A stretch of DNA of 64,000 nucleotides. Origin: Intrasporangiaceae bacterium. Lineage in GTDB: Bacteria > Actinomycetota > Actinomycetes > Actinomycetales > Dermatophilaceae. The stretch spans positions 5 to 64,004 of the forward strand of contig JAJPIW010000006.1 of assembly GCA_021324575.1 (NCBI GenBank), in the 5' to 3' direction. The position numbers were made by a program, and so were the translations under genes. The notes beneath the pieces are model-generated. The model worked only from the letters and a program-made list of their open reading frames with translations, was not told the DNA's origin and did no database searches. Shown piece after piece: positions 1,309-37,287 of the stretch; positions within the stretch are counted from its first letter, which is position 1, and each line of letters begins with the position of its first letter.

Positions 1309-1328
1309 CGGCATACGACCGTATGCCG
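1309..1328. terminator. Inverted pair of the 9-mer motif between convergent genes (possible bidirectional terminator)
   Basis: CGGCATACG-AC-CGTATGCCG is a near-perfect 20-bp palindrome. It lies between the lipoprotein stop (1303) and the regX3 stop (1352). Confidence 0.45.
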
Positions 1329-1351
1329 GGCCAGCTCGCGTCCCGGCCGGC

Positions 1352-2032
1352 CTAGGCCTCGAACTTGTAGCCGAGCCCGCGCACGGTGACGATGTGACGC
1401 GGCATGGCGGGGTCGGGCTCGATCTTGGCGCGCAGCCGCTTGACGTGGACATCGAGGGTCTTTGTGTCGCCGACGTAGTCACTGCCCCAGACCCGGTCGA
1501 TGAGCTGCATCCGGGTGAGGACCCGCCCCACGTTGCGCAGCAGCATCTCGAGCAGCTCGAACTCCTTGAGCGGCAGCGCGGCGCTATGGCCGCCGATCGT
1601 CACGACATGGCGCTCGACGTCCATCCGCACCGGACCGGCCTCCAGGGTCGGCGGCAGCAGGTCCTCGGGTTCGGCGAGCCGGCGGAGCACTGCCTTGATC
1701 CGGGCCAGCAGCTCGCGGGAGGAGTACGGCTTGGTCACGTAGTCGTCGGCGCCGATCTCCAGTCCGACGACCTTGTCGATCTCGCTGTCCTTGGCCGTGA
1801 GCATGATGATCGGTACCGACGAACGCTGTCGCAGCGCACGGCATACGTCGACGCCCGGCAACCCTGGAAGCATGAGGTCGAGGAGCACCAGATCGGCGCC
1901 GTTGGCGTCGAACTCGGTGATCGCGTCGGGACCGGTCTCGGCCACGGCGACGTCGTAGCCCTCCTTGCGCAGGAGGTAGGACAGCGGGTCGGAGAACGAC
2001 TCCTCGTCCTCGACGACCAGGATGCGGGTCAT
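1352..2032 (-). CDS. regX3: OmpR-family response regulator RegX3 (phosphate-limitation response)
   Basis: Only the C-terminal 226 aa of track ORF 1352-3268 are used, starting at MTRILVVEDEESFSDPL (ATG at 2032). The protein is near-colinear with mycobacterial RegX3 (LDLMLPG, DDYVTKPYS, TLDVHVKRLR). It overlaps senX3 by 4 bp. Confidence 0.9.
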   Translation of the reverse strand: MTRILVVEDEESFSDPLSYLLRKEGYDVAVAETGPDAITEFDANGADLVLLDLMLPGLPGVDVCRALRQRSSVPIIMLTAKDSEIDKVVGLEIGADDYVTKPYSSRELLARIKAVLRRLAEPEDLLPPTLEAGPVRMDVERHVVTIGGHSAALPLKEFELLEMLLRNVGRVLTRMQLIDRVWGSDYVGDTKTLDVHVKRLRAKIEPDPAMPRHIVTVRGLGYKFEA

Positions 2033-3210
2033 GGGGTCCCTTCGTGACGGGCCGGTTCGGGCTCGATGATGTCGGGGAGCCGCTGGGCCGAGGGCAGGCT
2101 CATGGTGAACGTCGACCCGTGCCCCGGTTGGCTCCAGACGGCCACGTGGCCGCCGTGGTTCTCGCAGATGTGCTTGACGATGGCCAGCCCCAGCCCGGTG
2201 CCACCGGTGGATCGGGACCGGGCAGCGTCGACCCGGTAGAACCGCTCGAAGACCCGCCCGAGGTCCTCCGCGGGGATGCCGCTGCCCTGGTCGGTCACGG
2301 CGACCTGGACCATGTCCTGGTCGCGACTGACGCGCACCGTCACTCGGGTGTTGACGTCGCTGTAGGTGACGGCGTTGCTCAGCAGGTTGTGGACGGCGGT
2401 CACCAGGAGGTCCTCGTCGCCGTAGACCGAGGCGCCGGGGTCGACGACCGCGACCAGCTCGATCCGGTTGTCCTCGGCGGCCAGCTTGGTCCGGTCCAGG
2501 GCCTCCCCCACGACCCGGCCGATGTCGACCAGGGCGGAGTCGGCCATCGGGTCGACCGTCTGCAGGCGCGACAGGTCGATGATCTCGGTGACCAGCCGGG
2601 CGAGACGGTCGGCCTCGACCCGCATCCGGCCGGCGAACCGGGCGATGGCCTCTGGGTCGTCCTTGGCGTCGAGGACGGCCTCGCTGAGCAGGCTGATACC
2701 GCCGACCGGTGTCTTGAGCTCGTGGCTGACGTTGGCGATGAAGTCGCGCCGGACCTCGTCGACCCGGCGGGCGGCGGTCATGTCCTCGATGAGGAGCAGG
2801 ACGTGGGCCGAGCCGAGCGGAGCCACCCGGGCGCGGACGTAGGTCCGGGCCTGTCCGGCCGGGGCACGGGCCAGGTCGAGCTCGGCCTCCCGGATCACGC
2901 CGTCGCGCCGCACCTGCCGCGCGAGGTGGCGCAGCTCGGCATGGACCAGCTCGTGGCCCCGCACCAGACCGTGGACCACCGCCGCCGGGGAGGTGTTCAC
3001 CACGGCATCGGAGCTGTCCAGGACGATGCCGCTGGAGCGCAGGACGGCGAGGACGTCGGCGACCCCGGCCGGGAGGGCCGGCTCGGCGGTCGGTGGGCCG
3101 GCTCGCTGCTCCCGCTCGGTGAACCGGGCGGCAAGGATCGCGGTGGCCCCAATGGCCACCCCCGCCAGACCACTGAGGGTCGCCGCCGTCGTCACGTCCA
3201 CGATGGTCAA
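2029..3210 (-). CDS. senX3: Sensor histidine kinase SenX3
   Basis: 393 aa with an H-box (FIANVSHELKTPV) and N/G boxes (LSNAVTY, DQGSGI, GGTGLGLAIV). It is translationally coupled to regX3. The start is TTG 3210 or GTG 3201 and is uncertain. Confidence 0.88.
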   Translation of the reverse strand: MTIVDVTTAATLSGLAGVAIGATAILAARFTEREQRAGPPTAEPALPAGVADVLAVLRSSGIVLDSSDAVVNTSPAAVVHGLVRGHELVHAELRHLARQVRRDGVIREAELDLARAPAGQARTYVRARVAPLGSAHVLLLIEDMTAARRVDEVRRDFIANVSHELKTPVGGISLLSEAVLDAKDDPEAIARFAGRMRVEADRLARLVTEIIDLSRLQTVDPMADSALVDIGRVVGEALDRTKLAAEDNRIELVAVVDPGASVYGDEDLLVTAVHNLLSNAVTYSDVNTRVTVRVSRDQDMVQVAVTDQGSGIPAEDLGRVFERFYRVDAARSRSTGGTGLGLAIVKHICENHGGHVAVWSQPGHGSTFTMSLPSAQRLPDIIEPEPARHEGTP

Positions 3211-3275
3211 GGGTACGCAGCGACGACACCTGTTCGGTCACCTCACCGACCCGGCTCGCACGGGACACGCCAGAA

Positions 3276-3308
3276 GTTCACCTTGGCTACGCACACCGTT
3301 CATCACTG
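3276..3308 (+). promoter_or_regulatory. PHO-box-like 11-nt direct repeat units in the senX3/phoU divergent region
   Basis: GTTCACCTTGG-CTACGCACACC-GTTCATCACTG. The two GTTCA units are in phase, 22 nt apart, and end 18 nt upstream of the phoU ATG. Confidence 0.45.
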
Positions 3309-3325
3309 CGTGCCACTCTCACGCC

Positions 3326-4006
3326 ATGCGTGAAGCCTTCCACGAGAACCTGCGGACCATCTCCGACCAGCTCGTCGAGATGACCCGGCTGGCATCCTCG
3401 GCCATGTCCCGGGCGACCACCGCCCTCCTCGACGCCGACGTGCACCTCGCGGAGTCGGTCATCGCCGCCGACAAGCAGATCGACGCGGTCCGCGAGGAGC
3501 TGGACCACCTCGCCGTCGACCTGCTCGCGCGCCAGCAGCCCGTCGCCACCGACCTGCGGATGGTCGTGACCAGCATGCGGATGAGCTCGGACCTGGAGCG
3601 GATGGGTGACCTGGCCCGGCACGTCGCCAAGGTGGCGCGACTGCGCTACCCCGAGTCGGCGGTTCCGCCCGAGCTGCGCGCGACGATCCTGCAGATGGGC
3701 CAGGTGGCAGAGCTGATCGTCAGCAAGGCCGGCTCGGTCATCGCGGCCCGCGACCTGGTCGCCGCCAAGGAGATCGAACGCGACGACGACGCGATGGACG
3801 CGCTGCACCGCGAGCTGTTCGAGCACCTCGTCGACGGCACCTGGCAGCACGGCACGGAGACCGCCGTCGACATCACCCTCCTCGGGCGCTACTACGAGCG
3901 GTATGCCGACCACGCCGTCTCGGTCGCTGCCCGCGTCATCTACCTCGTCACCGGCGAGTGGAACGCGGACATCGACGAGGACACCGCCGACGACCTCCCC
4001 CTCTGA
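3326..4006 (+). CDS. phoU: Phosphate signalling regulator PhoU
   Basis: ATG at 3326 within track ORF 2993-4006. The protein has two PhoU repeats (DLERMGDLARH and YYERYADHAV) and is divergent from senX3-regX3. Confidence 0.9.
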   Translation: MREAFHENLRTISDQLVEMTRLASSAMSRATTALLDADVHLAESVIAADKQIDAVREELDHLAVDLLARQQPVATDLRMVVTSMRMSSDLERMGDLARHVAKVARLRYPESAVPPELRATILQMGQVAELIVSKAGSVIAARDLVAAKEIERDDDAMDALHRELFEHLVDGTWQHGTETAVDITLLGRYYERYADHAVSVAARVIYLVTGEWNADIDEDTADDLPL

Positions 4007-4088: not shown

Positions 4089-6155
4089 GTGGACGAGGCA
4101 GGGGTGCCCAGCTCGTCGGTCATGACCGACCAGCCGCGACCGGCGCGCGACCCGGGCGCCGACCATGACGAGCTCGTCCGGGCCCGGTCGGCCGAGCTGA
4201 CCCGTCTGGCGTACCTCGTGACCGGCGACCGCGAGCGCGCGATCGACCTTGCTGCGACCGCGCTCGCCGGCCTGCGCGACGAGTGGGCGGAGGTCATCGA
4301 GCGTGGCACCCCGCAGGCCGAGGCCCGGGCCGCCGTCGTCCGTCGCCTGCTCCCGGGGCGACGTCGTCAGCAGGACGGCGGAGGCCCGGCGGCCTTCCCG
4401 GCGACCGACCCCGAGGGCGAGTGGATGGGCGAAGGTGAGCATGCGGCATACGGGCTGGAGGCGGACGACGACCTTGATCCGGTCGTGCTCTCGGCGTATT
4501 CCGCGGAGCCGCCCGGTACGCGGGTGGCCCTCGTCCTCGCCGAGGTCGACCTCCTGGACCGGCCGTCCGTTGCCGCCGCGCTCGAGCGCGACCCTCGGGT
4601 CGCCGAGGAGGCCATCGAGGCCGGCCTGGACCGGATCGGCCGCGCGCGGGTGCAGGCTGCCGACGACCGCGATCGGGAGCGACCCGGCGGGGGCATCGAG
4701 ACACACCTCCGGCGCGTCCTGCTCACCCAGAGCAGCCGGGCCGGCCTGCCCGCCGACCTCACCGAGGAGGTGAGCGCATGCCGGGCGCGCACGGTCAGGA
4801 GGCGTCGGCTCCTCACTGCCGGTGCGGGCGGCCTCTGCCTGGCCGCCGTGGGGGCGGTCGGCGGTCCCGCACTCGTCCGCCACCGGGACAGCGCCCCGTT
4901 GACGAGCTCGGGGTCGCGGGGCACCGCGCCCACCGCTACGGCCCCGGTCGACGGCGTCCTCGACACACCCGTGACTCTGTCCTGGGATGCCGTGTGGCGC
5001 TGGCCCGCTCGGGGCTCCATGGTCAACGACGCCGCCGTGCAGGACCTCACGCGACAGAACCGGCAGCGGGTGATCTACGCCGAACGGGTCGGCGGCGATG
5101 TCCTGGTCATCACCGCCCAGCACGACGAGAACGTGACCGACGGCAACGGGCTCACCGACCAGCTCGCCACCTTGATGTCGATCCGGACCATCCAGGGGCG
5201 GAGGACTGCCGAGGACCAGGTCGGCGCGTTCGGGCTGGCCGACACCGGCCCGCTGGCCGTCACGGCCTCGCTGTACGGGCCGGGGCGGCTCGTCGTGCTG
5301 GCCCGTCCCGAGGTCAGGAGCGTCGAGGTGTCGAGCACGGTTCTCTTCAACCCGAACGGGACGAGCGCGAGGGTCGGGTGGCAGCCGCTCCCGCTCGCCG
5401 GCGGGGTCGCCCAGGCGGCGTCGCCCGCGATGGGCTCCTTCGGCATGTCGGTTCGGTATGCCGGTGAGCACCGGGGTGCATACAGCGGCGACTTCGGCTT
5501 CGGCGGAGTCTTCCGGCCGACGGGAGTCACCGCCGCGGAGCGCCGGTGGAACGCTGACCAGATCGTCACCGCCCTGACCAGGCGGGCCCGTGACGTCGCG
5601 TGCACGCTCACCGGCCTGAACCCGGGGCAGGTGTCCGTGACGGTGACCTGCCGCACGACCGTGCCGGCCCGCAGGCTGCCGATCTCGGTTGCGACCGAGC
5701 CGGGCGGTGGCGACCAACAGGCCTACCCGCCCCAGGACACCGAGGTCGCCGTCCTCGTGACCACGTTGCCAGGCGGTGCCCGGCTACGGTCCGTCGCGGT
5801 GTGGCACCCCGCGGTCGGCTCGACCGGCATGCCCTCGGTGAACCTGTGGGAGGAGTCCGCGCCCTATCCGGCAGCGGACATCGAGCGCCGACCCGTCGTC
5901 CTACAGGGCTCGGACGCCACCGGCCAGGTCCTGGGCATCATCGTGCCGGGGGCATCGTCGGTTCGGGTCTCCCGGATGGGACTCGGACCCGGCCAGAAGG
6001 CGATGGTTCCCGTGACCGGACGGCTGGCCCTGTTCTCCGTCGACCGCGTCGACGAGACCTCGACGATCAATGGCTTCGACGCCAAGGGCGCCAAGATCGG
6101 GACCTGGCCGTTCTCCTGGCCCGGCGCCGGGAACCCGTGGGATCTCTACGGCTAG
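4089..6155 (+). CDS. Hypothetical membrane-anchored protein with a sigma-70 region-2-like N-terminus
   Basis: 688-aa ORF. The N-terminal segment LVRARSAELTRLAYLVTGDRERAIDLAATAL resembles ECF sigma region 2. One TM helix (LLTAGAGGLCLAAVGAVGGPALV) is followed by an extracytoplasmic domain of about 430 aa. Confidence 0.65.
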   Translation: MDEAGVPSSSVMTDQPRPARDPGADHDELVRARSAELTRLAYLVTGDRERAIDLAATALAGLRDEWAEVIERGTPQAEARAAVVRRLLPGRRRQQDGGGPAAFPATDPEGEWMGEGEHAAYGLEADDDLDPVVLSAYSAEPPGTRVALVLAEVDLLDRPSVAAALERDPRVAEEAIEAGLDRIGRARVQAADDRDRERPGGGIETHLRRVLLTQSSRAGLPADLTEEVSACRARTVRRRRLLTAGAGGLCLAAVGAVGGPALVRHRDSAPLTSSGSRGTAPTATAPVDGVLDTPVTLSWDAVWRWPARGSMVNDAAVQDLTRQNRQRVIYAERVGGDVLVITAQHDENVTDGNGLTDQLATLMSIRTIQGRRTAEDQVGAFGLADTGPLAVTASLYGPGRLVVLARPEVRSVEVSSTVLFNPNGTSARVGWQPLPLAGGVAQAASPAMGSFGMSVRYAGEHRGAYSGDFGFGGVFRPTGVTAAERRWNADQIVTALTRRARDVACTLTGLNPGQVSVTVTCRTTVPARRLPISVATEPGGGDQQAYPPQDTEVAVLVTTLPGGARLRSVAVWHPAVGSTGMPSVNLWEESAPYPAADIERRPVVLQGSDATGQVLGIIVPGASSVRVSRMGLGPGQKAMVPVTGRLALFSVDRVDETSTINGFDAKGAKIGTWPFSWPGAGNPWDLYG

Positions 6156-6161: not shown

Positions 6162-6896
6162 CTAACGGCCCTGGTTGGCGACCGCCGCGGCGGCTGCCGC
6201 CGCGGCCTCGGGATCGAGGTAGCGCGCCGGCTCGATCGGCATGAAGTCCTCGCCCAGGGTGTAGACCAGCGGCTGGCCGGTCGGGATGTTCAGTGCGGCG
6301 ATGTCCTCGTCGCTGATCCCGTCCAGGTGCTTGACGAGGGCGCGCAGGCTGTTGCCGTGGGCGGTCACGAGCACGGTCTCGCCGGCGGCGAGGTCGGCCT
6401 GGATCGGGCCCTCCCAGTACGGCATCATCCGGGCGATCACGTCCTTGAGGCACTCGGTGAGCGGGACGGGCACATCGGCATACCGGATGTCGCTCGTCTG
6501 GTCGAACTCCGAGCCGGCCTCGATCGGCGGCGGCGGGACGTCGAACGAGCGGCGCCAGAGCATGAACTGCTCCTCGCCGTACTTCTCACGGGTGGCCGCC
6601 TTGTCCAGTCCCTGCAGTGCGCCGTAGTGGCGCTCGTTGAGCCGCCAGTCGCGCCGCACCGGGATCCAGGACCGGTAGGCCACGTCGAGGGCCAGGTTGG
6701 CCGTCGTGATCGCCCGGCGCAGCAGCGAGGTGTGAACGACGGTCGGCAGCACGCCCTCGGCCTTGAGCAGCTCGCCCGCGCGGACGCCTTCCTCGAGTCC
6801 TTGGTCGTTGAGCTCGACGTCGACCCAGCCGGTGAAGAGGTTCTTGGCGTTCCAGTCGGAGTGTCCGTGGCGCAGCAGGATGAGCGTGTATGCCAT
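6162..6896 (-). CDS. gpmA: 2,3-bisphosphoglycerate-dependent phosphoglycerate mutase
   Basis: 244 aa. It has the [10 protein letters not shown] (RHG) motif and ERHYGALQG, and is colinear with GpmA/Gpm1. Confidence 0.95.
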
Positions 6897-8263: not shown

Positions 8264-9058
8264 ATGCCGGGCGCCGGACCCGTGGGCTCGATCACCCGCG
8301 GCACGACCAACCCCAACCGGTTGCGCCGCGTCGACCGGTGGCTCGCCGACGTCCAGGGCTGGCGGCTGCGCCGGTCCCAGACCCCGCCCGTCGTCGTCGA
8401 CCTGGGTTATGGCGCCTCACCGGTCACCGCCGTCGAGCTGCACGACCGCCTCCGCCGGATCCGGGCCGACGTCGAGGTCGTCGGCCTGGAGATCGACCCG
8501 GGGCGGGTGCGCGCAGCCGCCCCCTTGACGCGGCCGGGGCTGAGGTTCGCCCACGGCGGGTTCGAAGTCCCACTGCCCGCCGGTGGACGGGCGACGATGG
8601 TGCGCGCCTTCAACGTTCTGCGTCAGTATCCCGAGGCAGAGGTCGCCGCGGCCTGGGCGACCGTGGTGAGTCGCCTTGCGCCACAAGGGATTCTCGTCGA
8701 CGGAACGTGCGACGAGATCGGCCGGCTGTCGACGTGGGTCGCCGTCGACGCCGACGGGCCGCAGTCCCTCACCCTCTCCTGGCGGCTTCGCGGGCTGGAG
8801 CGACCGAGTGACATCGCCGAGCGGCTCCCCAAGGCGCTCATCCACCGCAACGTGCCCGGAGAGCCGGTCCACGCGGTGCTCGAGCGGCTCGACGACGCGT
8901 GGCGACGCTCCGCGGCATACGCGAGCTACGGTGCCCGACAACGGTTCGTGGCGATGGCGTCAGCGCTGCGCGACGAGGGCGTCGGGGTGATCGGCGGCCC
9001 GAGCCGCTGGCGGCTGGGCGAGCTGACCGTCCAGTGGTCCGACGTCGAACCCAGGTGA
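8264..9058 (+). CDS. Class I SAM-dependent methyltransferase
   Basis: 264 aa with motif I VVVDLGYGASP followed by VVGLEID. Confidence 0.7.
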   Translation: MPGAGPVGSITRGTTNPNRLRRVDRWLADVQGWRLRRSQTPPVVVDLGYGASPVTAVELHDRLRRIRADVEVVGLEIDPGRVRAAAPLTRPGLRFAHGGFEVPLPAGGRATMVRAFNVLRQYPEAEVAAAWATVVSRLAPQGILVDGTCDEIGRLSTWVAVDADGPQSLTLSWRLRGLERPSDIAERLPKALIHRNVPGEPVHAVLERLDDAWRRSAAYASYGARQRFVAMASALRDEGVGVIGGPSRWRLGELTVQWSDVEPR

Positions 9059-9437: not shown

Positions 9438-9515
9438 GGGTGTTTCCTTGCGTCTCGCTTGTGGCGTGGTCCGGCCAATTCTGCCGTATGCCGGGTGGTC
9501 GTCAGTGCGTCCGAC

Positions 9516-9842
9516 TCACCAGGGACCGTAGGGACCCTGGCGTTGGCCGCCCTTGCCGGTGACCTGACGCAGGGCGGGCCGGACGTCGGCGAGATAGACC
9601 CCGGCCGCCACGACGGCGAGTAGCCCGACGAAGCCGCCGATGACGTTGAAGACGCTCACGAAGCCGAGGGCGACCGCGACGACGAGGAGGATGACCCAGA
9701 AGTTCTTCGTGCGTTTGCCGGCGGCGGGGTAGGCATCGGTGCGGTGGGTCACCGCGTCGACGAGCGCATAGATCTCCATGACGAGCGCGGCCACGCCGAG
9801 GACGAGCAGCACCCACCCCTGCGCGCTACCGATCGTTCCCAT
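9516..9842 (-). CDS. DUF2516-family small membrane protein
   Basis: ATG at 9842 (MGTIGSAQGWVLLVLG...) within track ORF 9516-10037. The 108-aa product has three hydrophobic helices, and the extension upstream of the ATG is Arg-rich. Confidence 0.7.
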   Translation of the reverse strand: MGTIGSAQGWVLLVLGVAALVMEIYALVDAVTHRTDAYPAAGKRTKNFWVILLVVAVALGFVSVFNVIGGFVGLLAVVAAGVYLADVRPALRQVTGKGGQRQGPYGPW

Positions 9843-9874
9843 GGCCAAAGCGTAACCGGACGGGCCTCGGCGAC

Positions 9875-11423: not shown

Positions 11424-11451
11424 CAGGAGCGACCGGCATACGGCGTCTGGG

Positions 11452-27480: not shown

Positions 27481-28416
27481 ATGCCGGTCATTCCTGCCGC
27501 CGGGACCATCCCCTGGCGCCACCGCCAGGGCACCCTCGAGGTCGCGCTCGTCCATCGGCCACGCTACGACGACTGGTCGTGGCCCAAGGGCAAGCTCGAC
27601 CCCGGCGAGGAGTGGACGGTGGCCGCGGCCCGGGAGACCCTGGAGGAGACCGGTCTGGCCGTCCACCTGGGCGTCCCCCTCCCCTCCTCGGAGTACACCG
27701 TCCTGGACCGTGACGGCAGCCCGGCGACCAAGGAGGTCCGCTACTGGGCGGCTGAGGTCGTGGGCGGCGACGGCCGGTTGGTCAACGAGATCGACGACGT
27801 CGCGTGGCTGGACCACGTCGCGGCATACGACCGGCTCGACTACGCGCGCGACCGCGACCAGCTGCTGGCGCTCGTGCGGGCCGACCAGCTGGGCTGCCTG
27901 GACACCCGGCCGCTCGCCATCGTCCGGCATGCCAAGGCGGTGCCCCGCTCGCTGTGGCGCCGCGACGACCGGCTGCGCCCGCTGGAGTCCCCCGGCGACC
28001 GACGGTCGGTCGCGCTGGCCCGGGTGCTCGCGGCATACGGGGTCACCCGCCTGGTCACGTCTCCCTCGGTCCGCTGCGCGGACACCCTCGCGCCGTATGC
28101 CGCGTCGCTGGGCCGGGCGATGAAGCTTCGCGACGCGCTGTCGGAGGAGGGCTTCGAGGCCGACCCGAGCGGTGCCGTCGCCGTCGTCCTGCGCGAGCTG
28201 ACTCGCAAGCGCGCAACCGCCCTGTGCAGCCACGGTCCGGTCCTGCCGACCATCCTGCGTACCGTGGCCGAGCGGGTCGACCCCGAGGCCGGTGAGGTCG
28301 GTGAGCTGCTCGAAGGGGTCGCCGAGGAGGGCATGTCCAAGGGCGAGGTGCTTGTCGTGCACCTGACACGGGACCCGGACCCGGTCGTGGTCGCGGTGGA
28401 GCGACACCGTCCCTGA
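27481..28416 (+). CDS. Nudix hydrolase fused to a histidine-phosphatase (SixA-like) domain, MutT1-like
   Basis: ATG at 27481. The Nudix box is GKLDPGEEWTVAAARETLEETG and the C-terminal domain carries IVRHAKA. It follows ppk, the same pairing as Rv2984-Rv2985. Confidence 0.85.
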   Translation: MPVIPAAGTIPWRHRQGTLEVALVHRPRYDDWSWPKGKLDPGEEWTVAAARETLEETGLAVHLGVPLPSSEYTVLDRDGSPATKEVRYWAAEVVGGDGRLVNEIDDVAWLDHVAAYDRLDYARDRDQLLALVRADQLGCLDTRPLAIVRHAKAVPRSLWRRDDRLRPLESPGDRRSVALARVLAAYGVTRLVTSPSVRCADTLAPYAASLGRAMKLRDALSEEGFEADPSGAVAVVLRELTRKRATALCSHGPVLPTILRTVAERVDPEAGEVGELLEGVAEEGMSKGEVLVVHLTRDPDPVVVAVERHRP

Positions 28417-28613: not shown

Positions 28614-29738
28614 GTGAAGGTTCTCCGTATCGGCCAGCTGGCGGCCCTGTCCCTGGCCGGCTCCCTGACCCTGGCCGCCTGTGGCAGCGCCAGCAACGAC
28701 TCGAGCTCATCGACCACGAGCAGTGGCGGCAACACCTCCTCCTCGGCCGCCTCGGCCTGCGCGCCGGGCAACCTGTCGGCCGCCGGGTCCACCGCCCAGC
28801 TGAACGCCATGACCCAGGCCGGGTCGGGCTACAAGACCGCCTGCAACGCCGAGCTCGCCTACAACGGCACGGGCTCCGGTGCCGGCATCACCTCCTTCCT
28901 GAGCAAGCAGATCGACTTCGCCGGCTCCGACTCGGCGCTCAGCTCGACGGCCAAGGACGGCGACGAGTTCGCCAAGGCGAAGACGGCCTGCGGCTCCGAC
29001 GCGATCGACCTGCCGATGATCACCGGCCCGATCGCCGTCGCCTTCAACGTCAAGGGCGTCACCAAGCTCAACCTCACCGCCTCGCTCGTCGCGAAGATCT
29101 TCGCCGGCAAGGTCACGACGTGGAACGACAAGGCCATTGCCGACGCCAACTCCGGCGTCACGCTGCCGGCCACCCCGATCTCGGTCTTCTTCCGCTCCGA
29201 CTCCTCGGGCACGACCGACAACTTCACCAACTACCTGAACACCGCCGCGCCGGCTGACTGGACCGACGCCCACAGCAAGACGTGGACCGGCAAGGTCGGC
29301 CAGGGCAAGGCCAAGTCGGCCGGGGTCGGACAGGCCATCAAGGCCACCGACGGCGGCATCGGCTATGTCGAGTGGTCCTACGCGATCCAGAACCAGCTGC
29401 CGATGGCCGCCATCGACAACGGGGCCGGCCCGGTCGAGCTGACCGCCGACTCCGCCGGCAAGGCCGTGGAGGCCGCCACGATCAAGGGCACAGGCGGCGA
29501 CCTGTCGCTCAAGATCGACTACGCCACCAAGGCGGCCGGCGCCTACCCGATCGTCCTGGTGACCTACGAGATCGTCTGCACGAAGTACGCCGACGCCGCC
29601 AAGGGCGCGGCCGTGAAGTCGTTCATGAGCTACCTCGCATCCGACGCGTTCCAGAGCTCGCTGACCCAGATCGGCTCAGCTCCACTCCCCGCCTCGATCC
29701 TGGACAAGGTCAAGGCGTCGGTCGCCACCATCTCCTGA
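28614..29738 (+). CDS. pstS: Phosphate ABC transporter substrate-binding lipoprotein PstS
   Basis: GTG at 28614 (VKVLRIGQLAALSLAGSLTLAACGS, with a lipobox). GTGSGAG and FRSDSSGTT are PstS motifs. Confidence 0.92.
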   Translation: MKVLRIGQLAALSLAGSLTLAACGSASNDSSSSTTSSGGNTSSSAASACAPGNLSAAGSTAQLNAMTQAGSGYKTACNAELAYNGTGSGAGITSFLSKQIDFAGSDSALSSTAKDGDEFAKAKTACGSDAIDLPMITGPIAVAFNVKGVTKLNLTASLVAKIFAGKVTTWNDKAIADANSGVTLPATPISVFFRSDSSGTTDNFTNYLNTAAPADWTDAHSKTWTGKVGQGKAKSAGVGQAIKATDGGIGYVEWSYAIQNQLPMAAIDNGAGPVELTADSAGKAVEAATIKGTGGDLSLKIDYATKAAGAYPIVLVTYEIVCTKYADAAKGAAVKSFMSYLASDAFQSSLTQIGSAPLPASILDKVKASVATIS

Positions 29739-29765
29739 CGACCGCGACAGAGCAGCAGCTCCGAA

Positions 29766-29807
29766 CCTGCGGGGCGTCCAGGCCTGACCGGCCCGGCGCC
29801 CCGCAGG
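29766..29807 (+). terminator. Intercistronic stem-loop between pstS and pstC (possible attenuator or mRNA-stability element)
   Basis: CCTGCGGGGCG-(20 nt)-CGCCCCGCAGG is a perfect 11-bp stem starting 28 nt after the pstS stop. Confidence 0.5.
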
Positions 29808-29846
29808 ACATCCCCTCCAGGGCATCCCCTCCCAGACAGGCAGCAG

Positions 29847-30857
29847 ATGAGCTCGATCACCGGAGTCGCCCTCCCGGAGGAGACCCCCAGCGGCGGCCAG
29901 CCCAAGCCGCTCGACGCCGACCGGGCCAGCACCGGGCGGCTGGGTGACCGGATCTTCGGCGGGGCGGCCCTGGGCTCCGGCCTCCTCATCGTCGTCATCG
30001 TCACCCTCGTCGCGATCTTCCTGCTCGCCCAGGCGGTTCCTGCGCTGTCCAAGGACCACGCCAACTTCCTCACCTCGACCAGCTGGGTCACGTCCCAGCC
30101 GATGGCCTTCGGCATCGCCCAGCTGCTCTGGACGACGGTGGCCTCCTCGGTCGTCGCGCTCCTGTTCGCCGTGCCGTTCGCCGTGGCGATCGCGCTCTTC
30201 CTCACCCAGTACGCCCCCGCCTGGCTGGCTCGCCCCGCTGCCGGCCTCATCGACCTGCTCGCCGCGGTGCCGTCCATCGTCTTCGGCCTGTGGGGCGGCT
30301 TCATCGTGGCCCCCAAGTGGGCGCCCATCCAGCACTTCCTGTCCGACACCCTGGGCTGGATCCCGTTGTTCAAGCCGACCGCCGGCATCACCGGCGGCAA
30401 CACGATCTTCTTCGTCGGCATCATCCTGGCGATCATGATCCTGCCGATCATCACGGCCCTGTCGCGGGAGGTGTTCGCGCAGACGCCGACGACCCACAAG
30501 GAGGGTGCGCTCGCGCTCGGGGCCACCAAGTGGGAGATGGTGCGGACCGCAGTCCTGCCGTTCGGACGCCCCGGCGTCATCAGCGCCTCGATGCTCGGCC
30601 TGGGCCGAGCCCTCGGCGAGACCATCGCCGTCATGATGATCATCTCCGGGCTGCCGAACGGCGCCAAGTGGACCTGGTCGCTCTTCAACGGCGGCGCCAC
30701 GTTCGCCTCCAAGATCGCCAGCGACGCCTCGGAGTTCAGCGGCGGGCTGTCGACCGGCGCCTACATCGCCGCCGGCCTCGTGCTGTTCATCCTCACCTTC
30801 GTCGTCAACGCGATCGCCCGCATCATCATCGAGCGCCGGAAGGACTTCTCCGAATGA
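29847..30857 (+). CDS. pstC: Phosphate ABC transporter permease PstC
   Basis: 336 aa, polytopic, with the EAA-type loop [14 protein letters not shown]. Confidence 0.92.
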
Positions 30858-31759
30858 GCAGCACCACCGCGCGTCCCGAGGTCACCTTCGGCTCGAAGTC
30901 CTCCGGCCGGGCGATCCGGAACACGGTCGCGACCGTCCTCGTCTGGGCGGCGTTCCTCATCGCCCTCATCCCGCTCGGCTGGATCATGTGGACAGTCCTC
31001 ACCAAGGGCCTGCACGTCCTCTTCACGGGCACGTGGTGGCAGAAGGACCAGTCCGGGGCCCTGCCGCCCGGCTTCGACCACAACGTCCGCGGCGCCCGGC
31101 ACGCCCTCGTCGGCACCCTGGAGATGAGCGTCGTGACGTCGGTCATCGCGATCCCGATCGCGATCATGACCGCCATCTACCTCGTCGAGTACGGCCGCGG
31201 CAAGGTAGCCCGGCTGGTCAGCTTCATGGTCGACATCCTCTCCGGCATACCGTCGATCGTCGCCGCCCTGTTCATATACGCGATCTGGGTGACGACGTTC
31301 GGGCTCAAGCTGATCCCCGTGTGCGCCTCGATCGCCCTGGCCATGCTGATGATCCCGGTCGTCACCCGGTCGACCGAGGAGATGCTCAAGCTCGTCCCCA
31401 ACGAGCTGCGCGAGGCCTCCTATGCGCTCGGCGTGCCCAAGTGGAAGACGATCACCCGGGTCGTCCTGCCGACGTCGCTGTCCGGCATCGTCACCGGGGC
31501 CCTGCTCGGCTTCGCCCGCGTCGCCGGCGAGACCGCCCCCCTGATCCTGCTCGCGGCATACACCCAGTACCTCAACGAGAACATCTTCTCGGGCAACATG
31601 GCGGCCCTGCCGACCATGATCAGCACCGAGTTCAGCAACATCGGCGACGCGGTGTCCTCCGAGCGCCTGTGGGGAGCGGCGTGCACCCTCATCCTGCTCG
31701 TCCTCGTCATCAACCTCCTTGGTCGCCTCGTCGGGCGTCTGGCCAAGGTCAAGAAGTAA
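30854..31759 (+). CDS. pstA: Phosphate ABC transporter permease PstA
   Basis: ATG at 30854 overlaps the pstC stop (ATGA). The product is 301 aa and carries [14 protein letters not shown]. Confidence 0.92.
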
Positions 31760-31781: not shown

Positions 31782-32558
31782 ATGGCCAAGCGCATCGACG
31801 TCCAGGACCTGGACATCTTCTACGGCGACTTCAAGGCGGTCGAGGGCGTCAACCTCAGCGTCGAGCCACGGTCGGTCACCGCGTTCATCGGCCCCTCGGG
31901 TTGCGGCAAGTCCACCGTGCTGCGGACGCTCAACCGGATGCACGAGGTGATCCCCGGCGGCCGGGTCCAGGGCAAGGTGCTCCTGGACGACGAGGACCTG
32001 TATGCCGCGTCGATGGACCCCGTGGTCGTCCGGCGGACGGTCGGCATGGTCTTCCAGCGACCCAACCCGTTCCCGACGATGTCCATCGCCGACAACGTCG
32101 CCGCCGGCCTGCGGCTCAACGGGGTCAAGGACAAGAAGACGCTGAACGAGGTCGTCGAGAAGTCGCTCAAGGGCGCCAACCTCTGGAACGAGGTCAAGGA
32201 CCGCCTGGACAAGCCCGGCGCCGGCCTCTCCGGCGGCCAGCAGCAGCGGCTCTGCATCGCCCGCGCGATCGCCGTCCAGCCCCAGGTGCTGCTCATGGAC
32301 GAGCCCTGCTCGGCGCTGGACCCGATCTCCACGCTGGCGATCGAGGACCTCATCCACGAGCTCAAGGACAGCTTCACCGTCGTCATCGTCACGCACAACA
32401 TGCAGCAGGCGGCGCGGGTGTCGGACCAGACGGCGTTCTTCAACCTCAAGGCCACCGGCCAGCCCGGGCACCTCATCGAGATCGACGACACCAAGACGAT
32501 CTTCAACAACCCGACCGAGAAGGCCACCGAGGACTACATCAGCGGTCGCTTCGGCTGA
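31782..32558 (+). CDS. pstB: Phosphate ABC transporter ATP-binding protein PstB
   Basis: ATG at 31782. Walker A is GPSGCGKST, the signature is LSGGQQQRL and Walker B is [11 protein letters not shown]. Confidence 0.95.
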
Positions 32559-32635
32559 CCCCACCGCTTCCCGCGGGCCAGACGACGGTTCGTATGCCGG
32601 TGGCGCGATCCGGCTCGTATGCCGAGTGGCCCGGC

Positions 32636-33205
32636 TCAGCTCCTGCCGAACTCCGGGTCCCGGCCGATGAAGCCGAGCAGGCGGGTCTGCACGTCGGCGT
32701 CGTCGGGCACCGGCACGCGGGGCCCGAACTGCCCTGAGGACCGCATCAGCTCCTCGATCGGTGCCATCCCGGCGAGCAGGTCGGCGCAGGTCTGCGGGTC
32801 GAGCCGCTCGTCCTGACCGGTGGCACGGGCCAGGTCCCACGTGTGCATGAACACGTCCGAGGTGTAGAACTGGTCGACCGCGACCGGCAGCGGCATCTCC
32901 CCCACCATCGGGTGCCGGAAGGGGGTGGCTGCCTGCGGCCCTTCCAGCAGCCGCTGCACGGCGTCGGTGTGCACCTGCCAGGCGGCGACCGGGTCCTCGT
33001 CCGGGGACGGGCCGCGGTCGAGCGCCAGCCCGGTCGCACTCCCGAGGAACTCCGGGAACCAGTTGACGAGGTGACCGACCACGTCCCGGGCGCTCCAACC
33101 GGCCACCGGGGCCGGCGCGTCCCAGTCGGACGCCCCCTCCACCCGCGCCGTGAAGGCGGCGGTCACCGCGCGATGGCGCTCCGTCGGTTCAGCGGGGAGG
33201 GTCAT
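32636..33205 (-). CDS. DinB-like / mycothiol-dependent maleylpyruvate isomerase N-terminal domain family protein (TIGR03086-like)
   Basis: ATG at 33205 (MTLPAEPTERHRAV) within track ORF 32636-33583. The 189-aa product has WSARDVVGHL. Confidence 0.7.
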   Translation of the reverse strand: MTLPAEPTERHRAVTAAFTARVEGASDWDAPAPVAGWSARDVVGHLVNWFPEFLGSATGLALDRGPSPDEDPVAAWQVHTDAVQRLLEGPQAATPFRHPMVGEMPLPVAVDQFYTSDVFMHTWDLARATGQDERLDPQTCADLLAGMAPIEELMRSSGQFGPRVPVPDDADVQTRLLGFIGRDPEFGRS

Positions 33206-34069: not shown

Positions 34070-34174
34070 CTCAGCCTCCGAACCTCAACCGATTGGTTGA
34101 GGAAACCGTACGCTCTGACCCGAGCCCACGTCAACCGAATGGTTGAGATCTGGTCCGTATGCCGGGCGCTCAGG

Positions 34175-35176
34175 TCAGACGAAGAGGTGGATCGCGGCAT
34201 ACGCTGCCGCTGCGGCCAGCCCGGCACCGGGGAAGGTGAACACCCACGCGCCGACGATGTTCTTGGCGACGCTCCAGCGGACCGCCTTGACCGACCGGGT
34301 CGCGCCGACGCCCATGATCGCCGAGGTGATGGCGTGGGTGGTCGAGATCGGCGCCTGCATCGCGGTCGCGACGAACAGGATCGACGCGGCGGTGATCTCG
34401 GCCGCGAAGCCCTGCGGGGGGTCGAGGTGGATGATCCGCCGGCCGAGGGTGCGCATGATCCGCCAGCCACCGGAGTACGTGCCCGCGCTGATGACGACCG
34501 CGGACATGACCAGGACCCAGAGCGGCACGTGCGAGGAGTCCCCGTGGAAGCCGCCGACGGTGAGCGCCAGGACGACGACGCCCGCGGTCTTGGCCGCGTC
34601 CTGCATGCCGTGGCCGAACGCCATGGCGGCCGCCGAGACGGTCTGGGCGTAGCGGAAGCCGCGACCCACCTTGGCCGGCATCTGCCGCCGGAAGATCCAC
34701 AGGATCGCGGTCATGACGAGGTAGCCGAGGATCAGGCCGACGATGGGCGACAGGACCATCGGGATGATGACCTTGTCGATGATGCCCTGCCACTTGACCG
34801 TGGCGCCGGCCGCGAGCGCTGCCCCGCCGAGCCCACCGATGAGGGCGTGGCTCGAGGAGGACGGCAGGCCGAACCACCAGGTGAGCAGGTTCCAGGCGAT
34901 GGCCCCGATGAGGGCGCCGGCGCAGATGACCAGCCCGGAGGTCCCTTGCGGTGCGGTGATGATGCCCTTGCCCACTGTGGCGGCAACCTTGGTGCCGGCG
35001 AACGCTCCGAACAGGTTGGCCGCGGCGGCCATGACCAGCGCGATGCGGGGGGTGAGCGCCCGGGTCGACACCGACGTGGCGATGGCGTTGGCCGAGTCGT
35101 GGAAGCCGTTGGTGTAGTTGAACCCCATCGCCAGGATGACGACAAGGATCACCCCGAGCAGGTTGGCCTGGTCCAT
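34175..35176 (-). CDS. pit: Inorganic phosphate transporter, PiT family
   Basis: 333 aa, polytopic. The signature NGFHDSANAIATS is present and there is a second repeat near the C-terminus. Confidence 0.9.
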   Translation of the reverse strand: MDQANLLGVILVVILAMGFNYTNGFHDSANAIATSVSTRALTPRIALVMAAAANLFGAFAGTKVAATVGKGIITAPQGTSGLVICAGALIGAIAWNLLTWWFGLPSSSSHALIGGLGGAALAAGATVKWQGIIDKVIIPMVLSPIVGLILGYLVMTAILWIFRRQMPAKVGRGFRYAQTVSAAAMAFGHGMQDAAKTAGVVVLALTVGGFHGDSSHVPLWVLVMSAVVISAGTYSGGWRIMRTLGRRIIHLDPPQGFAAEITAASILFVATAMQAPISTTHAITSAIMGVGATRSVKAVRWSVAKNIVGAWVFTFPGAGLAAAAAYAAIHLFV

Positions 35177-36091: not shown

Positions 36092-36132
36092 CTGTCAAGG
36101 ATACGAACCGCGACGGGTTCGGGTGAGCCGTT

Positions 36133-36162
36133 TAGGTACAGGCTTGGTAAAACTTTCGTCAA
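36133..36162 (-). promoter_or_regulatory. Candidate sigma-70-type promoter for the small-ORF/DUF47/pit operon
   Basis: On the minus strand TTGACG (36162-36157) is followed by 18 nt and then TACCTA (36138-36133), within a locally A/T-richer patch. Confidence 0.3.
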
Positions 36163-36218
36163 GGTAACCGGTGCGCGGGGCTCGCCGGACCCGAGCCCGG
36201 ATCCGCCCTCGGTCGACC

Positions 36219-36266
36219 GATCACGACATGCGGCAGTCCCCCAACCATCTCCCGCATGTCGTGATC
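36219..36266. other. Perfect 15-bp inverted repeat with an 18-nt loop in a 430-bp gene-free spacer
   Basis: GATCACGACATGCGG-cagtcccccaaccatctc-CCGCATGTCGTGATC. The loop is C-rich on the plus strand. Confidence 0.5.
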
Positions 36267-36518
36267 GCTCGACTCAGGGAACCCGGGCTGGTGGGACCTG
36301 GCTCGACGTCAGCGACGCGTCCAGCGAGGAACGAGCTGGACAAGGAGTTGACGTCGGGCTGGGAGCGCCTCACGGCGCGTGGCCGCTCGTAGCGGCTAAT
36401 TTTGGGACCCGGGGCTGCCGCAGCCCGACGTCTGCACGACTCTAACCCCTCTGGCACCATTTTCGTTCCCGGAACGCGTCTGGCGAACCGCTTGCTGTTG
36501 CGCTCGTATGCCGCGCAG

Positions 36519-37175
36519 TCAGGTGAGCTCGCCGGCTCGCCAGAGCGCGGCACAAGCTCGCAGGTCGTTGCTCGTCTGCAGCATCGAGACACCTCGGCGC
36601 GTGAGCACACCGGCGGCGGGCCCGTCGCTGTCACCGGCCAGGTCGGCACGACCCGCTGAGATCACAGCGCAGAAGGCTGAGGCGCGGTCGAGCGCGATGG
36701 CGAAGTCACCGGCATACACGCCGGTGAGGATGTCGTCGGTGATCCGGCGGACCTCGTCGGGACCGGGTGGCTCCGCGACCCCGGCGACGGCGTGGGCGAC
36801 GTCGGTGAACCGGATGCCCGCGGCATACTCCCGGCTGACCTCGTGCGGTGAGCGACGGACCCATTCGCGGATCGCGTAGAGCCGCCAGAGTGCGCCGGGC
36901 AGCGAGCGCGCCGGGCGGTCGCTCCACAGGTCCGCGATGGTCGAGAGGCCGAGCTCGTCGACGAGTGCGACGAGGCGCCTGGTGATCTCCGGGTCGCGTG
37001 CGGCCCGGCCGGCGCCGACGATGACCGCCGCTGTCTCGTGGGCGATCTCGGAGATCTCGGCCGGCCCGGGCGTCGTGCCGCCGTGCTCCTCCAGCTGGTC
37101 CGGGCCGAAGGGCGCAGGCCGGCGGGGTATCGGTCGACCCGAAGGCGTGGTCACGTGTTCCATCCTCTCCCACAA
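36519..37175 (-). CDS. Conserved hypothetical protein
   Basis: 218-aa ORF with high GC3. The start may be the second ATG (MEHVTT). No family was recognised. Confidence 0.6.
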   Translation of the reverse strand: MWERMEHVTTPSGRPIPRRPAPFGPDQLEEHGGTTPGPAEISEIAHETAAVIVGAGRAARDPEITRRLVALVDELGLSTIADLWSDRPARSLPGALWRLYAIREWVRRSPHEVSREYAAGIRFTDVAHAVAGVAEPPGPDEVRRITDDILTGVYAGDFAIALDRASAFCAVISAGRADLAGDSDGPAAGVLTRRGVSMLQTSNDLRACAALWRAGELT

Positions 37176-37287
37176 GAGCGTTGATCGCCTGACCGCACCG
37201 CCGGAGCAGTACCTCCGGCATACGGCGTCCGCACTAGAGTTGGGCCCGCTCGCGCGGCACCGGACCTTGCCGATTCCGCTGCGCGAC

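Follow-up and report, generated by a model that had tools for sequence, protein, structure and literature searches.

The genomic signature of DNA uptake sequences, as set out in the introduction to a comparative study from 2025 (bioRxiv 10.1101/2025.10.24.684340), is a short word present in hundreds to thousands of copies, with dialects among relatives. Copies of such words form intergenic inverted repeats that act as terminators, obey frame constraints inside genes, are enriched in the core genome and are absent from recent acquisitions (same source). Only one other octamer reaches a comparable abundance: the highly iterated palindrome HIP1 (GCGATCGC) is 15- to 300-fold over-represented, palindromic, methylated by DmtA/DmtC and found phylum-wide in cyanobacteria. 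Its function was long unknown; the abstract of a preprint reports that it enhances transformation. The conservation of HIP1 sites within and between genes was read as selection rather than replenishment (Xu et al. 2018). Here, we describe the non-palindromic word CGGCATAC in a 64,000-nucleotide stretch of DNA from Intrasporangiaceae bacterium (contig JAJPIW010000006.1; hereafter the window), which consists of a chromosomal core of 37.3 kb and, beyond a tRNA-Lys gene, an integrative conjugative element (ICE). The word shows every item of the uptake-sequence signature.

An over-represented octamer under constraint at the DNA level

The 8-mer CGGCATAC, which differs from its own reverse complement, is the core unit of the signal. 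It occurs 47 times in positions 1-37300 (1.26/kb), 24 times on the plus strand and 23 times on the minus strand, where 0.4-2.3 copies are expected. Over-representation is thus 35-120 fold, varying with the null model. The first-pass annotation of this DNA had singled out a 9-mer, CGGCATACG, with 16 plus-strand and 19 minus-strand starts in the core and two more copies at 58612 and 62578. All these positions were reproduced exactly: both strands of the window hold 37 exact matches, 35 of them in 1309-37224. The annotation had roughly estimated one copy or fewer from base composition; 100 dinucleotide-preserving shuffles gave 0.38 +/- 0.63 copies (maximum 3) and an order-3 Markov model 1.06. Yet the 9-mer, although enriched, is not the word itself: the real unit is the 8-mer, and 12 core copies without G at the ninth base had been missed. 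Sub-word counts in 1-37300 are 51 for GGCATA, 48 for CGGCATA, 47 for CGGCATAC and 35 for CGGCATACG. A maximal-order Markov test, as proposed in the annotation, tells nothing here (33.6 expected, 35 observed), since all sub-words share the enrichment.

The C flanking the core had been described as invariant, and it precedes 35/35 GGCATACG and 47/49 GGCATAC. When 25 nt on each side of all copies were aligned, only C at -2 and G at +9 were conserved, and non-random positions were limited to -2, 1-8 and +9. C stands at -2 in 25/37 of the 9-mers and 29/47 of the 8-mers, and the usual form in the window is C-N-CGGCATAC-G. Since the flanks are otherwise unrelated, the copies are an independent word and not the pieces of one longer dispersed repeat, which the annotation had itself named as a finding that would undo its reading. 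A 15-mer which it had seen at 13776 and 32616 is indeed present at both places, but such a recurrence is about what chance gives among 37 copies (by arithmetic).

The core copies are listed below with the coordinates of the 8-mer, its strand, the next base and its location. Genes were called heuristically from codon-position GC, with Pfam checks, and the region 20231-22091 was corrected from the gene calls of relatives; CDS stands for coding sequence. Among the loci compared, L010 is a Nostocoides metagenome-assembled genome (MAG), L287 a related contig, L282 N. japonicum T1-X7, L283 Oryzobacter sp. R7, L284 strain NEB 688 and L288 Pedococcus.

1309-1316, plus; next G; intergenic between convergent genes; left hairpin arm, pairs with 1321-1328
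1321-1328, minus; next G; intergenic; right hairpin arm
1839-1846, plus; next G; CDS 1352-2032 (minus), opposite strand, GTA-TGC-CGT-GCG (VCRA)
3901-3908, minus; next C; intergenic by our own gene calls
4444-4451, plus; next G; CDS 4089-6155 (plus), GCG-GCA-TAC-GGG (AAYG)
5456-5463, minus; next C; CDS 4089-6155 (plus), CGG-TAT-GCC-GGT (RYAG)
6476-6483, plus; next C; CDS 6162-6896 (minus), CGG-TAT-GCC-GAT (RYAD)
8913-8920, plus; next G; CDS 8264-9058 (plus), GCG-GCA-TAC-GCG (AAYA)
9486-9493, minus; next G; intergenic, 23 nt past the stop of CDS 9516-9848 (minus)
10377-10384, minus; next G; CDS 10305-11318 (minus), CCG-GCA-TAC-GAA (PAYE)
10493-10500, plus; next A; CDS 10305-11318 (minus), GTG-TAT-GCC-GTG (VYAV)
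11434-11441, plus; next G; intergenic, 11 nt past the stop of CDS 11452-12171 (minus)
12651-12658, plus; next G; intergenic; hairpin arm with 12677-12684, 11 nt past the stop of CDS 12695-13201 (minus)
12677-12684, minus; next G; intergenic; arm of the hairpin with a 13-bp stem
13777-13784, minus; next G; CDS 13334-14821 (minus), CTC-GGC-ATA-CGC (LGIR)
14068-14075, plus; next G; CDS 13334-14821 (minus), ACG-TAT-GCC-GCG (TYAA)
14753-14760, minus; next G; CDS 13334-14821 (minus), GCG-GCA-TAC-GCC (AAYA)
15799-15806, minus; next G; CDS 15767-16630 (minus), CTC-GGC-ATA-CGG (LGIR)
16051-16058, plus; next A; CDS 15767-16630 (minus), CTG-TAT-GCC-GGT (LYAG)
16646-16653, minus; next G; intergenic between tandem minus-strand genes
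17193-17200, minus; next G; CDS 16680-17723 (minus), GCG-GCA-TAC-GGA (AAYG); word at the same site in 4 other taxa
17288-17295, plus; next G; CDS 16680-17723 (minus), GCG-TAT-GCC-GTT (AYAV)
19840-19847, minus; next G; holds the ATG start of CDS 19842-20213 (plus); conserved in L287
19949-19956, minus; next C; CDS 19842-20213 (plus), GGG-TAT-GCC-GTG (GYAV)
20161-20168, plus; next G; CDS 19842-20213 (plus), GCG-GCA-TAC-GTC (AAYV); conserved in L287
20908-20915, plus; next G; CDS 20231-21178 (minus, corrected call), GCG-TAT-GCC-GAT (AYAD); conserved in L287
21815-21822, minus; next G; glnR-like CDS ~21393-22091 (plus), ACG-TAT-GCC-GCG (TYAA)
22093-22100, plus; next G; intergenic, 2 nt past the stop at 22091; conserved in L287
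24351-24358, minus; next G; CDS 24172-25128 (plus), GCG-TAT-GCC-GGG (AYAG); common to 3 other taxa
24533-24540, plus; next G; CDS 24172-25128 (plus), GCG-GCA-TAC-GGG (AAYG)
24929-24936, plus; next C; CDS 24172-25128 (plus), CCG-GCA-TAC-CAG (PAYQ); common to 4 other taxa
25957-25964, minus; next G; ppk 25145-27466 (plus), CCG-TAT-GCC-GTG (PYAV); conserved in L010
27479-27486, minus; next G; holds the ATG start of CDS 27481-28416 (plus); conserved in L287
27821-27828, plus; next G; CDS 27481-28416 (plus), GCG-GCA-TAC-GAC (AAYD)
28031-28038, plus; next G; CDS 27481-28416 (plus), GCG-GCA-TAC-GGG (AAYG); common to L010, L002 and L008; relatives without the word have GCC/GCG-TAC here
28095-28102, minus; next G; CDS 27481-28416 (plus), CCG-TAT-GCC-GCG (PYAA)
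31243-31250, plus; next C; pstA-like CDS 30854-31759 (plus), TCC-GGC-ATA-CCG (SGIP); the MAG with the CGGCATTC dialect has CGGCATTC at the same place
31554-31561, plus; next A; CDS 30854-31759 (plus), GCG-GCA-TAC-ACC (AAYT)
32000-32007, minus; next A; pstB-like CDS 31782-32558 (plus), CTG-TAT-GCC-GCG (LYAA)
32592-32599, minus; next G; intergenic between convergent genes; direct pair with 32617
32617-32624, minus; next G; intergenic, 12 nt past the stop of CDS 32636-33205 (minus)
34157-34164, minus; next G; intergenic, 11 nt past the stop of CDS 34175-35176 (minus)
34195-34202, plus; next G; PHO4 CDS 34175-35176 (minus), GCG-TAT-GCC-GCG (AYAA); conserved in L010
36506-36513, minus; next G; intergenic, 6 nt past the stop of CDS 36519-37175 (minus); conserved in L010
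36710-36717, plus; next A; CDS 36519-37175 (minus), GTG-TAT-GCC-GGT (VYAG); conserved in L010
36821-36828, plus; next T; CDS 36519-37175 (minus), GAG-TAT-GCC-GCG (EYAA)
37216-37223, plus; next G; last core copy; intergenic, 65 nt before tRNA-Lys

Outside CDSs the word is in excess: 16/47 core copies lie there, although non-coding DNA makes up 8.2% (p=5e-7). The first estimate of about 40% intergenic copies agrees with a hand count of the 9-mers (15/35 outside genes). Most non-CDS copies are within about 40 nt of a stop codon and three are exactly 11 nt past one. By RNA folding, the inverted pair 12651/12677, just past a stop, forms a hairpin of -28.5 kcal/mol with a 13-bp stem, and the pair 1309/1321, just downstream of stops, one of -19.4 kcal/mol; neither is followed by a U-tract. 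Across taxa, 13 of the 16 close pairs are inverted (p=0.011). The spacing of copies in the core is Poisson-like (coefficient of variation 0.99) and shows no short-range periodicity. Among the core coding copies, 15 are on the gene strand and 16 on the opposite one. Orientation does not depend on the gene strand. This excludes a role for the word as RNA or peptide; what is read is duplex DNA.

Inside genes, 31 of the 35 coding copies of the whole window fall in just two phases, xCG-GCA-TAC (Ala-Tyr) or xxG-TAT-GCC-G (Tyr-Ala). The annotation had pointed out, from four plus-strand TAT cases and the GCA-TAC cases, that these are rare codons, and this holds. Of all Ala codons 5.6% are GCA, but of those at Ala-Tyr 15/31 are (odds ratio 19, p=8e-12); of all Tyr codons 17% are TAT, but of those at Tyr-Ala 19/40 are (p=3e-7). 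In the ICE genes, GCA-TAC is used in 1/26 Ala-Tyr and TAT-GCC in 4/32 Tyr-Ala pairs; relatives without the word have 0 GCA-TAC and 0-1 TAT-GCC. Codon alignments of orthologous Ala-Tyr sites show CGGCATAC in carriers and CGGCGTAC, CCGCCTAC or TTGCGTAC in non-carriers, and relatives that lack the word have GCC/GCG and TAC at the orthologous positions. Two start codons, at 19842 and 27481, do lie within the word as had been noticed, and the lengths of these genes match those of their orthologues.

Copies are also conserved in place. Of 14 copies, 11 are intact in a contig with 83% DNA identity, where 27.5% of all 8-mer windows are (p=1e-4); the Nostocoides MAG keeps 6 of 8, where the figure for all windows is 37% (p=0.035). 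Where the word differs between close relatives, no single substitution recurs (small n). Codon-pair statistics and site conservation thus agree with the selection at the DNA level that had been proposed at first pass, and the word is under DNA-level constraint.

Lineage restriction, dialects and loss

We compared the surroundings of ppk, taking one genome per species together with metagenomes and named genomes; several of these loci include non-syntenic flanks that also carry the word. The PPK of the window is 92% identical to that of the Nostocoides MAG (partial gene), 90% to that of a metagenome contig from ENA and 82% to that of N. japonicum. Judged by these identities, the host is a member of the Nostocoides/Tetrasphaera group of Dermatophilaceae. 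The counts of CGGCATAC below are per ~22-kb locus unless a span is given.

Ca. Phosphoribacter hodrii: 26 copies
Knoellia koreensis: 24 copies
N. japonicum: 15 copies
MAG MFD04580: 13 copies
K. sinensis: 12 copies
Contig with 90% PPK identity: 12 copies in 11.6 kb
MFD01721: 11 copies
L081: 11 copies
Ornithinibacter MAG: 8 copies in 14 kb
Nostocoides MAG: 6 copies in 5 kb
Pedococcus: 5 copies
Phycicoccus jejuensis, Phycicoccus BSK3Z-2, Oryzobacter R7 and strain NEB 688: 0 copies each
Angustibacter: 1 copy
About 140 other actinobacterial loci: 0-1 copies each

Density is ~0.5-1.2/kb in eleven related loci (genomes, MAGs and metagenome contigs). The background in other actinobacterial ppk loci is 0.021/kb over 2.36 Mb, and the window core stands 60 times higher. 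Among the metagenome PPK matches listed, all with at most 71% identity, the word was present only in L081 and L082. Pooled over eleven loci oriented by ppk, strand counts are 107/94 (p=0.40), with no locus skewed.

A de novo search of each locus for over-represented 8-mers revealed a dialect. The Phycicoccus MAG Go_SlDig_bin_253 carries CGGCATTC 27 times (14 plus, 13 minus) and CGGCATAC 5 times, 3 of these 5 at sites common to other taxa. Its CGGCATTC copies occupy Ala-Phe (GCA-TTC, 6/35) and Asn-Ala pairs (AAT-GCC, 8/15), where all other taxa use GCG-TTC and AAC-GCC. The base following the octamer varies as well: it is G in 35/47 copies of the window, 10/12 of L287 and 5/6 of the Nostocoides MAG, and C in 14/24 of K. 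koreensis, 15/26 of Phosphoribacter, 9/13 of L004 and 7/11 of L081. In N. japonicum (positions 1-22289 of its locus) the 5' part is relaxed, with 35 GCATAC of which 15 are the full CGGCATAC; word-free genomes have 0-2 GCATAC. What is read in this species may be a shorter or looser version of the word, or else the copies there may be in decay.

In a neighbour-joining tree with simple distances, built from eight concatenated orthologues (2,397 aligned residues), the word-free P. jejuensis and the CGGCATTC MAG are sisters, and CGGCATAC carriers surround the two. The simplest history is an ancestral CGGCATAC, one dialect switch and at least one loss.

Alternative words in the CGGCATAC-poor relatives were considered and rejected: CTTTGCCTC in Oryzobacter, TTCACACACGT in NEB 688 and CCGCATACAAAGTCG in Pedococcus belong to longer clustered intergenic repeats or operator-like pairs and are not dispersed. 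Oryzobacter sp. R7 has CGCTTTGCCTCCCG arrays at 1851-1976 and 18047-18172, and Pedococcus has CCGCATACAAAGTCG pairs at 17615-17668 and 18313-18366. Strain NEB 688 has inverted GTTCACACACGTTCGCG pairs at 542-575, 1189-1224 and 13355-13390; one of them lies just upstream of pstS and is perhaps a PHO-box-like operator.

Mobile DNA and gene context

The change in word density along the window coincides with a tRNA gene, found with ARAGORN, and with the ICE that follows it:

37288-37360, plus: tRNA-Lys (UUU), border between the word-rich core and the word-poor island
37437-64000, minus: ICE, running off the window, with integrase, primase, VirD4/TraG, RHS-repeat protein, TrbL/VirB6 and NlpC/P60 (Pfam)

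The first-pass annotation had called the DNA beyond tRNA-Lys an ICE and had contrasted the extreme excess of the word in the core with its scarcity here. We found both to be right: the integrase is a tyrosine integrase, VirD4/TraG is the coupling protein and NlpC/P60 a hydrolase. The ICE (~26.7 kb) carries 4 copies of CGGCATAC, i.e. 0.15/kb versus 1.26/kb in the core (p=1e-10), which still exceeds the actinobacterial background (p=0.0026):

58613-58620, minus; next G; CDS 58052-59494 (minus), ACG-GCA-TAC-GAC (TAYD)
59931-59938, plus; next A; CDS 59491-60798 (minus), CTG-TAT-GCC-GCG (LYAA)
61283-61290, plus; next A; CDS 60795-61604 (minus), CTG-TAT-GCC-GCA (LYAA)
62578-62585, plus; next G; CDS 61970-63463 (minus), TCG-TAT-GCC-GCG (SYAA)

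All four lie in the T4SS (type IV secretion system) module at 58.6-62.6 kb (EccE-like, TrbL/VirB6 and NlpC/P60 genes) and in the usual Ala-Tyr/Tyr-Ala phases, which gives this module ~0.7-1/kb by the span taken. The half with the integrase, primase, VirD4 and RHS genes has 0 copies in 20.7 kb. This distribution suggests that the ICE is a mosaic, its transfer module having spent time in word-bearing lineages, and that its parts differ in residence time. The cargo includes a 2,123-aa RHS-repeat protein and a 1,035-aa protein without Pfam match (46581-52952 and 53050-56157, minus). In both, GC is low at the first and high at the second codon position, and the two may form a toxin or surface-protein pair. 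Nowhere else in the window is the 3' part of tRNA-Lys repeated over 14 nt or more; the ICE therefore ends, and has its far attachment site, beyond base 64000.

Tetrasphaera jenkinsii phage TJE1 (49.2 kb, 57.7% GC) has 2 copies (0.04/kb) and is not enriched. Viral contigs scanned for the inverted-pair pattern yielded chance matches only, in DNA of 36-64% GC, and no enriched phage. The IMG/VR contigs L237, L204 and L170 (53-64% GC) have 5 copies of the 8-mer in 7-14 kb, despite their lower GC. A plasmid search with the coupling protein of the ICE found no Dermatophilaceae plasmid.

The first 37.3 kb are housekeeping chromosome, with carD, a senX3/regX3-like pair, glnR, ppk, a mutT1-like gene, pstSCAB, PHO4 and a phoU-like gene. 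Among the annotated genes of the window there is no competence gene; no search aimed at competence genes was made. A word-free gap of 3.1 kb spans pstS-pstC (pstSCAB region, 28614-31242), and the most conserved genes carry very few copies, which fits accumulation at permissive sites only. The single copy in ppk (25145-27466) has no counterpart in the ppk of Knoellia, Phosphoribacter or N. japonicum, which hold none.

Some gene calls deserve care. The composition-based caller fused 20231-22091 into one plus-strand open reading frame, where relatives show two minus-strand genes, one of ~285 aa without known function and ThiS, then glnR (~232 aa) starting near 21393. At 3319-3876 (minus), two adjacent open reading frames with codon-position GC of 0.40/0.73/0.95 are either a Ser/Thr-rich protein or a mis-call; their status bears on whether the copy at 3901 is truly intergenic. 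A pair of genes for an MFS transporter and a TetR regulator (13334-15650), carrying 3 copies of CGGCATAC, is flanked by a ~40-bp repeat with a perfect 14-bp palindrome, CTCTGCTAGCAGAG, inside it (13244-13263, 15670-15689 and 15736-15755). A fourth copy of the repeat unit TAGCAGAGGTTAGG stands at the start of the window (1-10). The genes next to the pair, DUF4395 and BKACE, stand side by side in Oryzobacter, strain NEB 688 and Phycicoccus BSK3Z-2, for which reason the pair looks like a repeat-bounded insertion.

What the word might do, and how it compares with known systems

We showed that a force acting on the DNA sequence, symmetric between strands and specific to the lineage, keeps the word near one copy per kb wherever the cost is lowest. 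The cheapest sites are those just past stop codons, sometimes as hairpin-forming inverted pairs, and the Ala-Tyr and Tyr-Ala pairs, through rare synonymous codons. The explanation we favour, tentatively and at somewhat less than an even chance, is that CGGCATAC would be a word by which self DNA is recognised in uptake or recombination and which molecular drive would have spread in part of the Dermatophilaceae. A sequence-specific DNA-binding part of a DNA-exchange pathway, most likely a natural-transformation receptor, would prefer fragments bearing the word, and conspecific fragments would be taken up and recombined more often. Molecular drive and selection for transformability would then spread the word across the core genome and keep it there. 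A change in receptor specificity would produce a new dialect (e.g. CGGCATTC in one Phycicoccus lineage, or G versus C at the ninth base), loss of the system would let the word decay, as in Phycicoccus jejuensis, and recent arrivals such as ICE cargo and phage would be without it.

The likeness to uptake sequences had already been proposed from the distribution in the window, and lineage restriction, dialects, nested loss, strand symmetry and hairpin-forming inverted pairs now add to it. One might go further, with slightly less confidence, and see here the first uptake-signal system of a Gram-positive bacterium or actinobacterium, present in Nostocoides/Tetrasphaera, Knoellia, Ca. Phosphoribacter, Ornithinibacter and one Phycicoccus lineage. 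It would be independent of the DNA uptake sequences (DUS) and uptake signal sequences (USS) already described, with a receptor other than a ComP-type pilin crossing an outer membrane. The first-pass annotation knew of no such word in actinobacteria; we found no prior description of CGGCATAC or an equivalent there in the literature, in a search of partial coverage that left many subscription papers outside, and this absence is not proof. A hyper-abundant self-DNA word of this type would be new for the phylum.

Several points weigh against reading the word as a signal for DNA exchange. The literature we searched holds no report of natural competence and no uptake or transformation experiment for Dermatophilaceae. 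Specific uptake signals are so far known only from two Gram-negative families (bioRxiv 10.1101/2025.10.24.684340). A core of 8-9 nt is shorter than those of DUS (10-12) or USS (9 plus flanks). Close pairs in the window number 4, about the ~3.4 expected from a Poisson process (by arithmetic), and only their inverted orientation is biased. We infer genome-wide uniformity from loci that all lie around ppk. Finally, all the genomic hallmarks would follow equally from any strand-symmetric, sequence-specific and lineage-specific process that favours the word.

One such process, which we regard as rather unlikely, is binding by an abundant nucleoid or chromosome-organising protein, the sites being selected for folding or segregation and not for DNA exchange. 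A structural reading was once proposed for HIP1, and the conservation of the word within and between genes is what Xu et al. (2018) found for that motif; strand symmetry, high density and restriction to the core would also fit. But the Poisson-like spacing lacks short-range order (over 37 kb, too short for long-range periodicity), and a protein so essential that it keeps up presumably thousands of sites over the genome is unlikely to have been lost outright in P. jejuensis, Oryzobacter and NEB 688 or re-specified between sister lineages. We also know of no actinobacterial nucleoid protein that reads a specific 8-mer.

Unlikely too is a Chi-like signal, at which an end-resection helicase-nuclease (AdnAB or RecBCD) would switch from degradation to RecA loading, thereby marking and protecting self DNA. 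To our knowledge no Chi has been defined in Actinobacteria, which leaves this niche open for a short asymmetric 8-mer that is enriched in the core, scarce in foreign DNA and conserved at the DNA level. Yet known Chi sites are skewed towards the leading strand, over-represented only a few fold and conserved over wide taxa, whereas CGGCATAC has no orientation bias, be it in the window (24/23) or over the eleven syntenic loci (107/94). It is also 35-120 fold enriched, switched dialect between sister lineages and vanished from one of them, and hairpin-forming inverted pairs are not a feature of Chi.

It is improbable that the word is a functionless by-product of biased mutation or repair, such as very-short-patch-like repair or methyltransferase-linked conversion of near-cognate sites. 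A bias of this sort would be strand-symmetric and lineage-specific, would vanish or change with its enzyme and would act slowly on newly arrived DNA, and HIP1 is linked to methyltransferases. However, the word is non-palindromic, unlike typical targets of methyltransferases or Vsr, and an enrichment of 35-120 fold is far beyond known effects of repair bias. Between close relatives no single substitution recurs (again with small n), and positional conservation is well above controls, a pattern that Xu et al. take as selection rather than replenishment.

A word for a conjugative or chromosome-mobilising translocase, i.e. a TraB/FtsK-type pump acting on 8-bp repeats or the sites of a mycobacteria-like distributive conjugal transfer, seems very improbable. 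The winged-helix domains of FtsK, SpoIIIE and TraB do read 8 bp: the FtsK orienting polar sequences (KOPS), SpoIIIE recognition sequences (SRS) and TraB recognition sequences (TRS). Actinobacteria have such systems and the function would again be exchange of self DNA. But KOPS and SRS are strongly polar and CGGCATAC is not, TRS repeats cluster in the clt locus instead of being chromosome-wide, and the ICE of the window is of VirD4/T4SS type, with a cargo half devoid of the word.

An explanation by pieces of a single scattered mobile repeat, by an artefact of assembly or adapters, or by chance is refuted, even if the 9-mer lies in an adapter and two inverted pairs resemble hairpins of repetitive extragenic palindromes (REP): flanks are unrelated beyond -2 and +9, two thirds of the copies are in frame in conserved housekeeping genes, no copy extends into the adapter, the same sites recur in independent isolate genomes and MAGs, and 0/100 shuffles reach 37 copies. 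The Illumina P7 adapter (ATCTCGTATGCCGTCTTCTGCTTG) contains the 9-mer, CGTATGCCG being a segment of it, which made the adapter check necessary. None of the window copies of CGGCATAC runs on into adapter sequence. Adapter trimming, or screening for contamination, by means of short seeds could mistakenly flag or clip reads of these genomes.

If CGGCATAC is a self-DNA recognition word, it matters beyond this locus. Sequence-specific recognition of self DNA through hyper-abundant words is firmly known in two proteobacterial families only, with HIP1 as a recent candidate. An independent case in a high-GC Gram-positive lineage, complete with dialect switch and loss, would imply that this strategy evolved repeatedly, and would point to unrecognised natural transformation or another exchange of self DNA in Dermatophilaceae. 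This family includes dominant polyphosphate accumulators of wastewater (Ca. Phosphoribacter, Tetrasphaera), which are without genetic tools; the word could be put into DNA constructs to test or improve transformation. Carriers, the dialect lineage and nested non-carriers offer a ready design for phylogenetic profiling aimed at the reader protein. Word density is also a sensitive marker for foreign DNA such as ICEs and phages, and for binning and classifying Dermatophilaceae MAGs.

Among known systems, REP sequences, bacterial interspersed mosaic elements and miniature inverted-repeat transposable elements resemble CGGCATAC in their many copies and some intergenic hairpins. They differ in being 20-150 bp long and intergenic with conserved flanks, whereas here 8-9 nt are conserved and 66% of copies are inside genes. 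KOPS, SRS and TRS are likewise 8 bp and read as duplex DNA, but the former two are polar towards dif and the last form a cluster at the plasmid clt, unlike this non-polar and dispersed word. Chi (5-8 nt, read by RecBCD/AddAB) is also a short asymmetric and core-enriched marker of self; it is strand-skewed, far less enriched and stable, while CGGCATAC is unskewed (107/94), exceeds expectation 35-120 fold and differs from one sister lineage to another. HIP1 is likewise a hyper-abundant octamer with sites conserved within and between genes, although CGGCATAC is asymmetric, confined to part of one family and Poisson-like in its spacing in the window.

The USS of Pasteurellaceae (Hin and Apl types) have, like CGGCATAC, a short core with weak flanks (in this word, -2 is C and +9 is G or C), coding copies in the frames of acceptable peptides and switches of type between sub-clades; CGGCATAC lacks their AT-rich flanking segments and belongs to a different phylum. 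The DUS of Neisseriaceae have the minor pilin ComP as their receptor. In sequence CGGCATAC is unrelated to them, apart from the hexamer ATGCCG that it has in common with the 12-mer DUS of Neisseria, ATGCCGTCTGAA, and that we take as coincidence. The host of CGGCATAC, a Gram-positive of high GC, lacks an outer membrane and has no known ComP, and the core is of 8-9 nt instead of 10-12. Yet in its genomic behaviour the word is like DUS. About one copy per kb implies thousands of copies, equally distributed between strands; there are an intergenic excess, inverted-pair hairpins after genes and a limited set of reading frames; copies are enriched in the core and scarce in ICEs and recent DNA; and related genera differ by one-base dialects.

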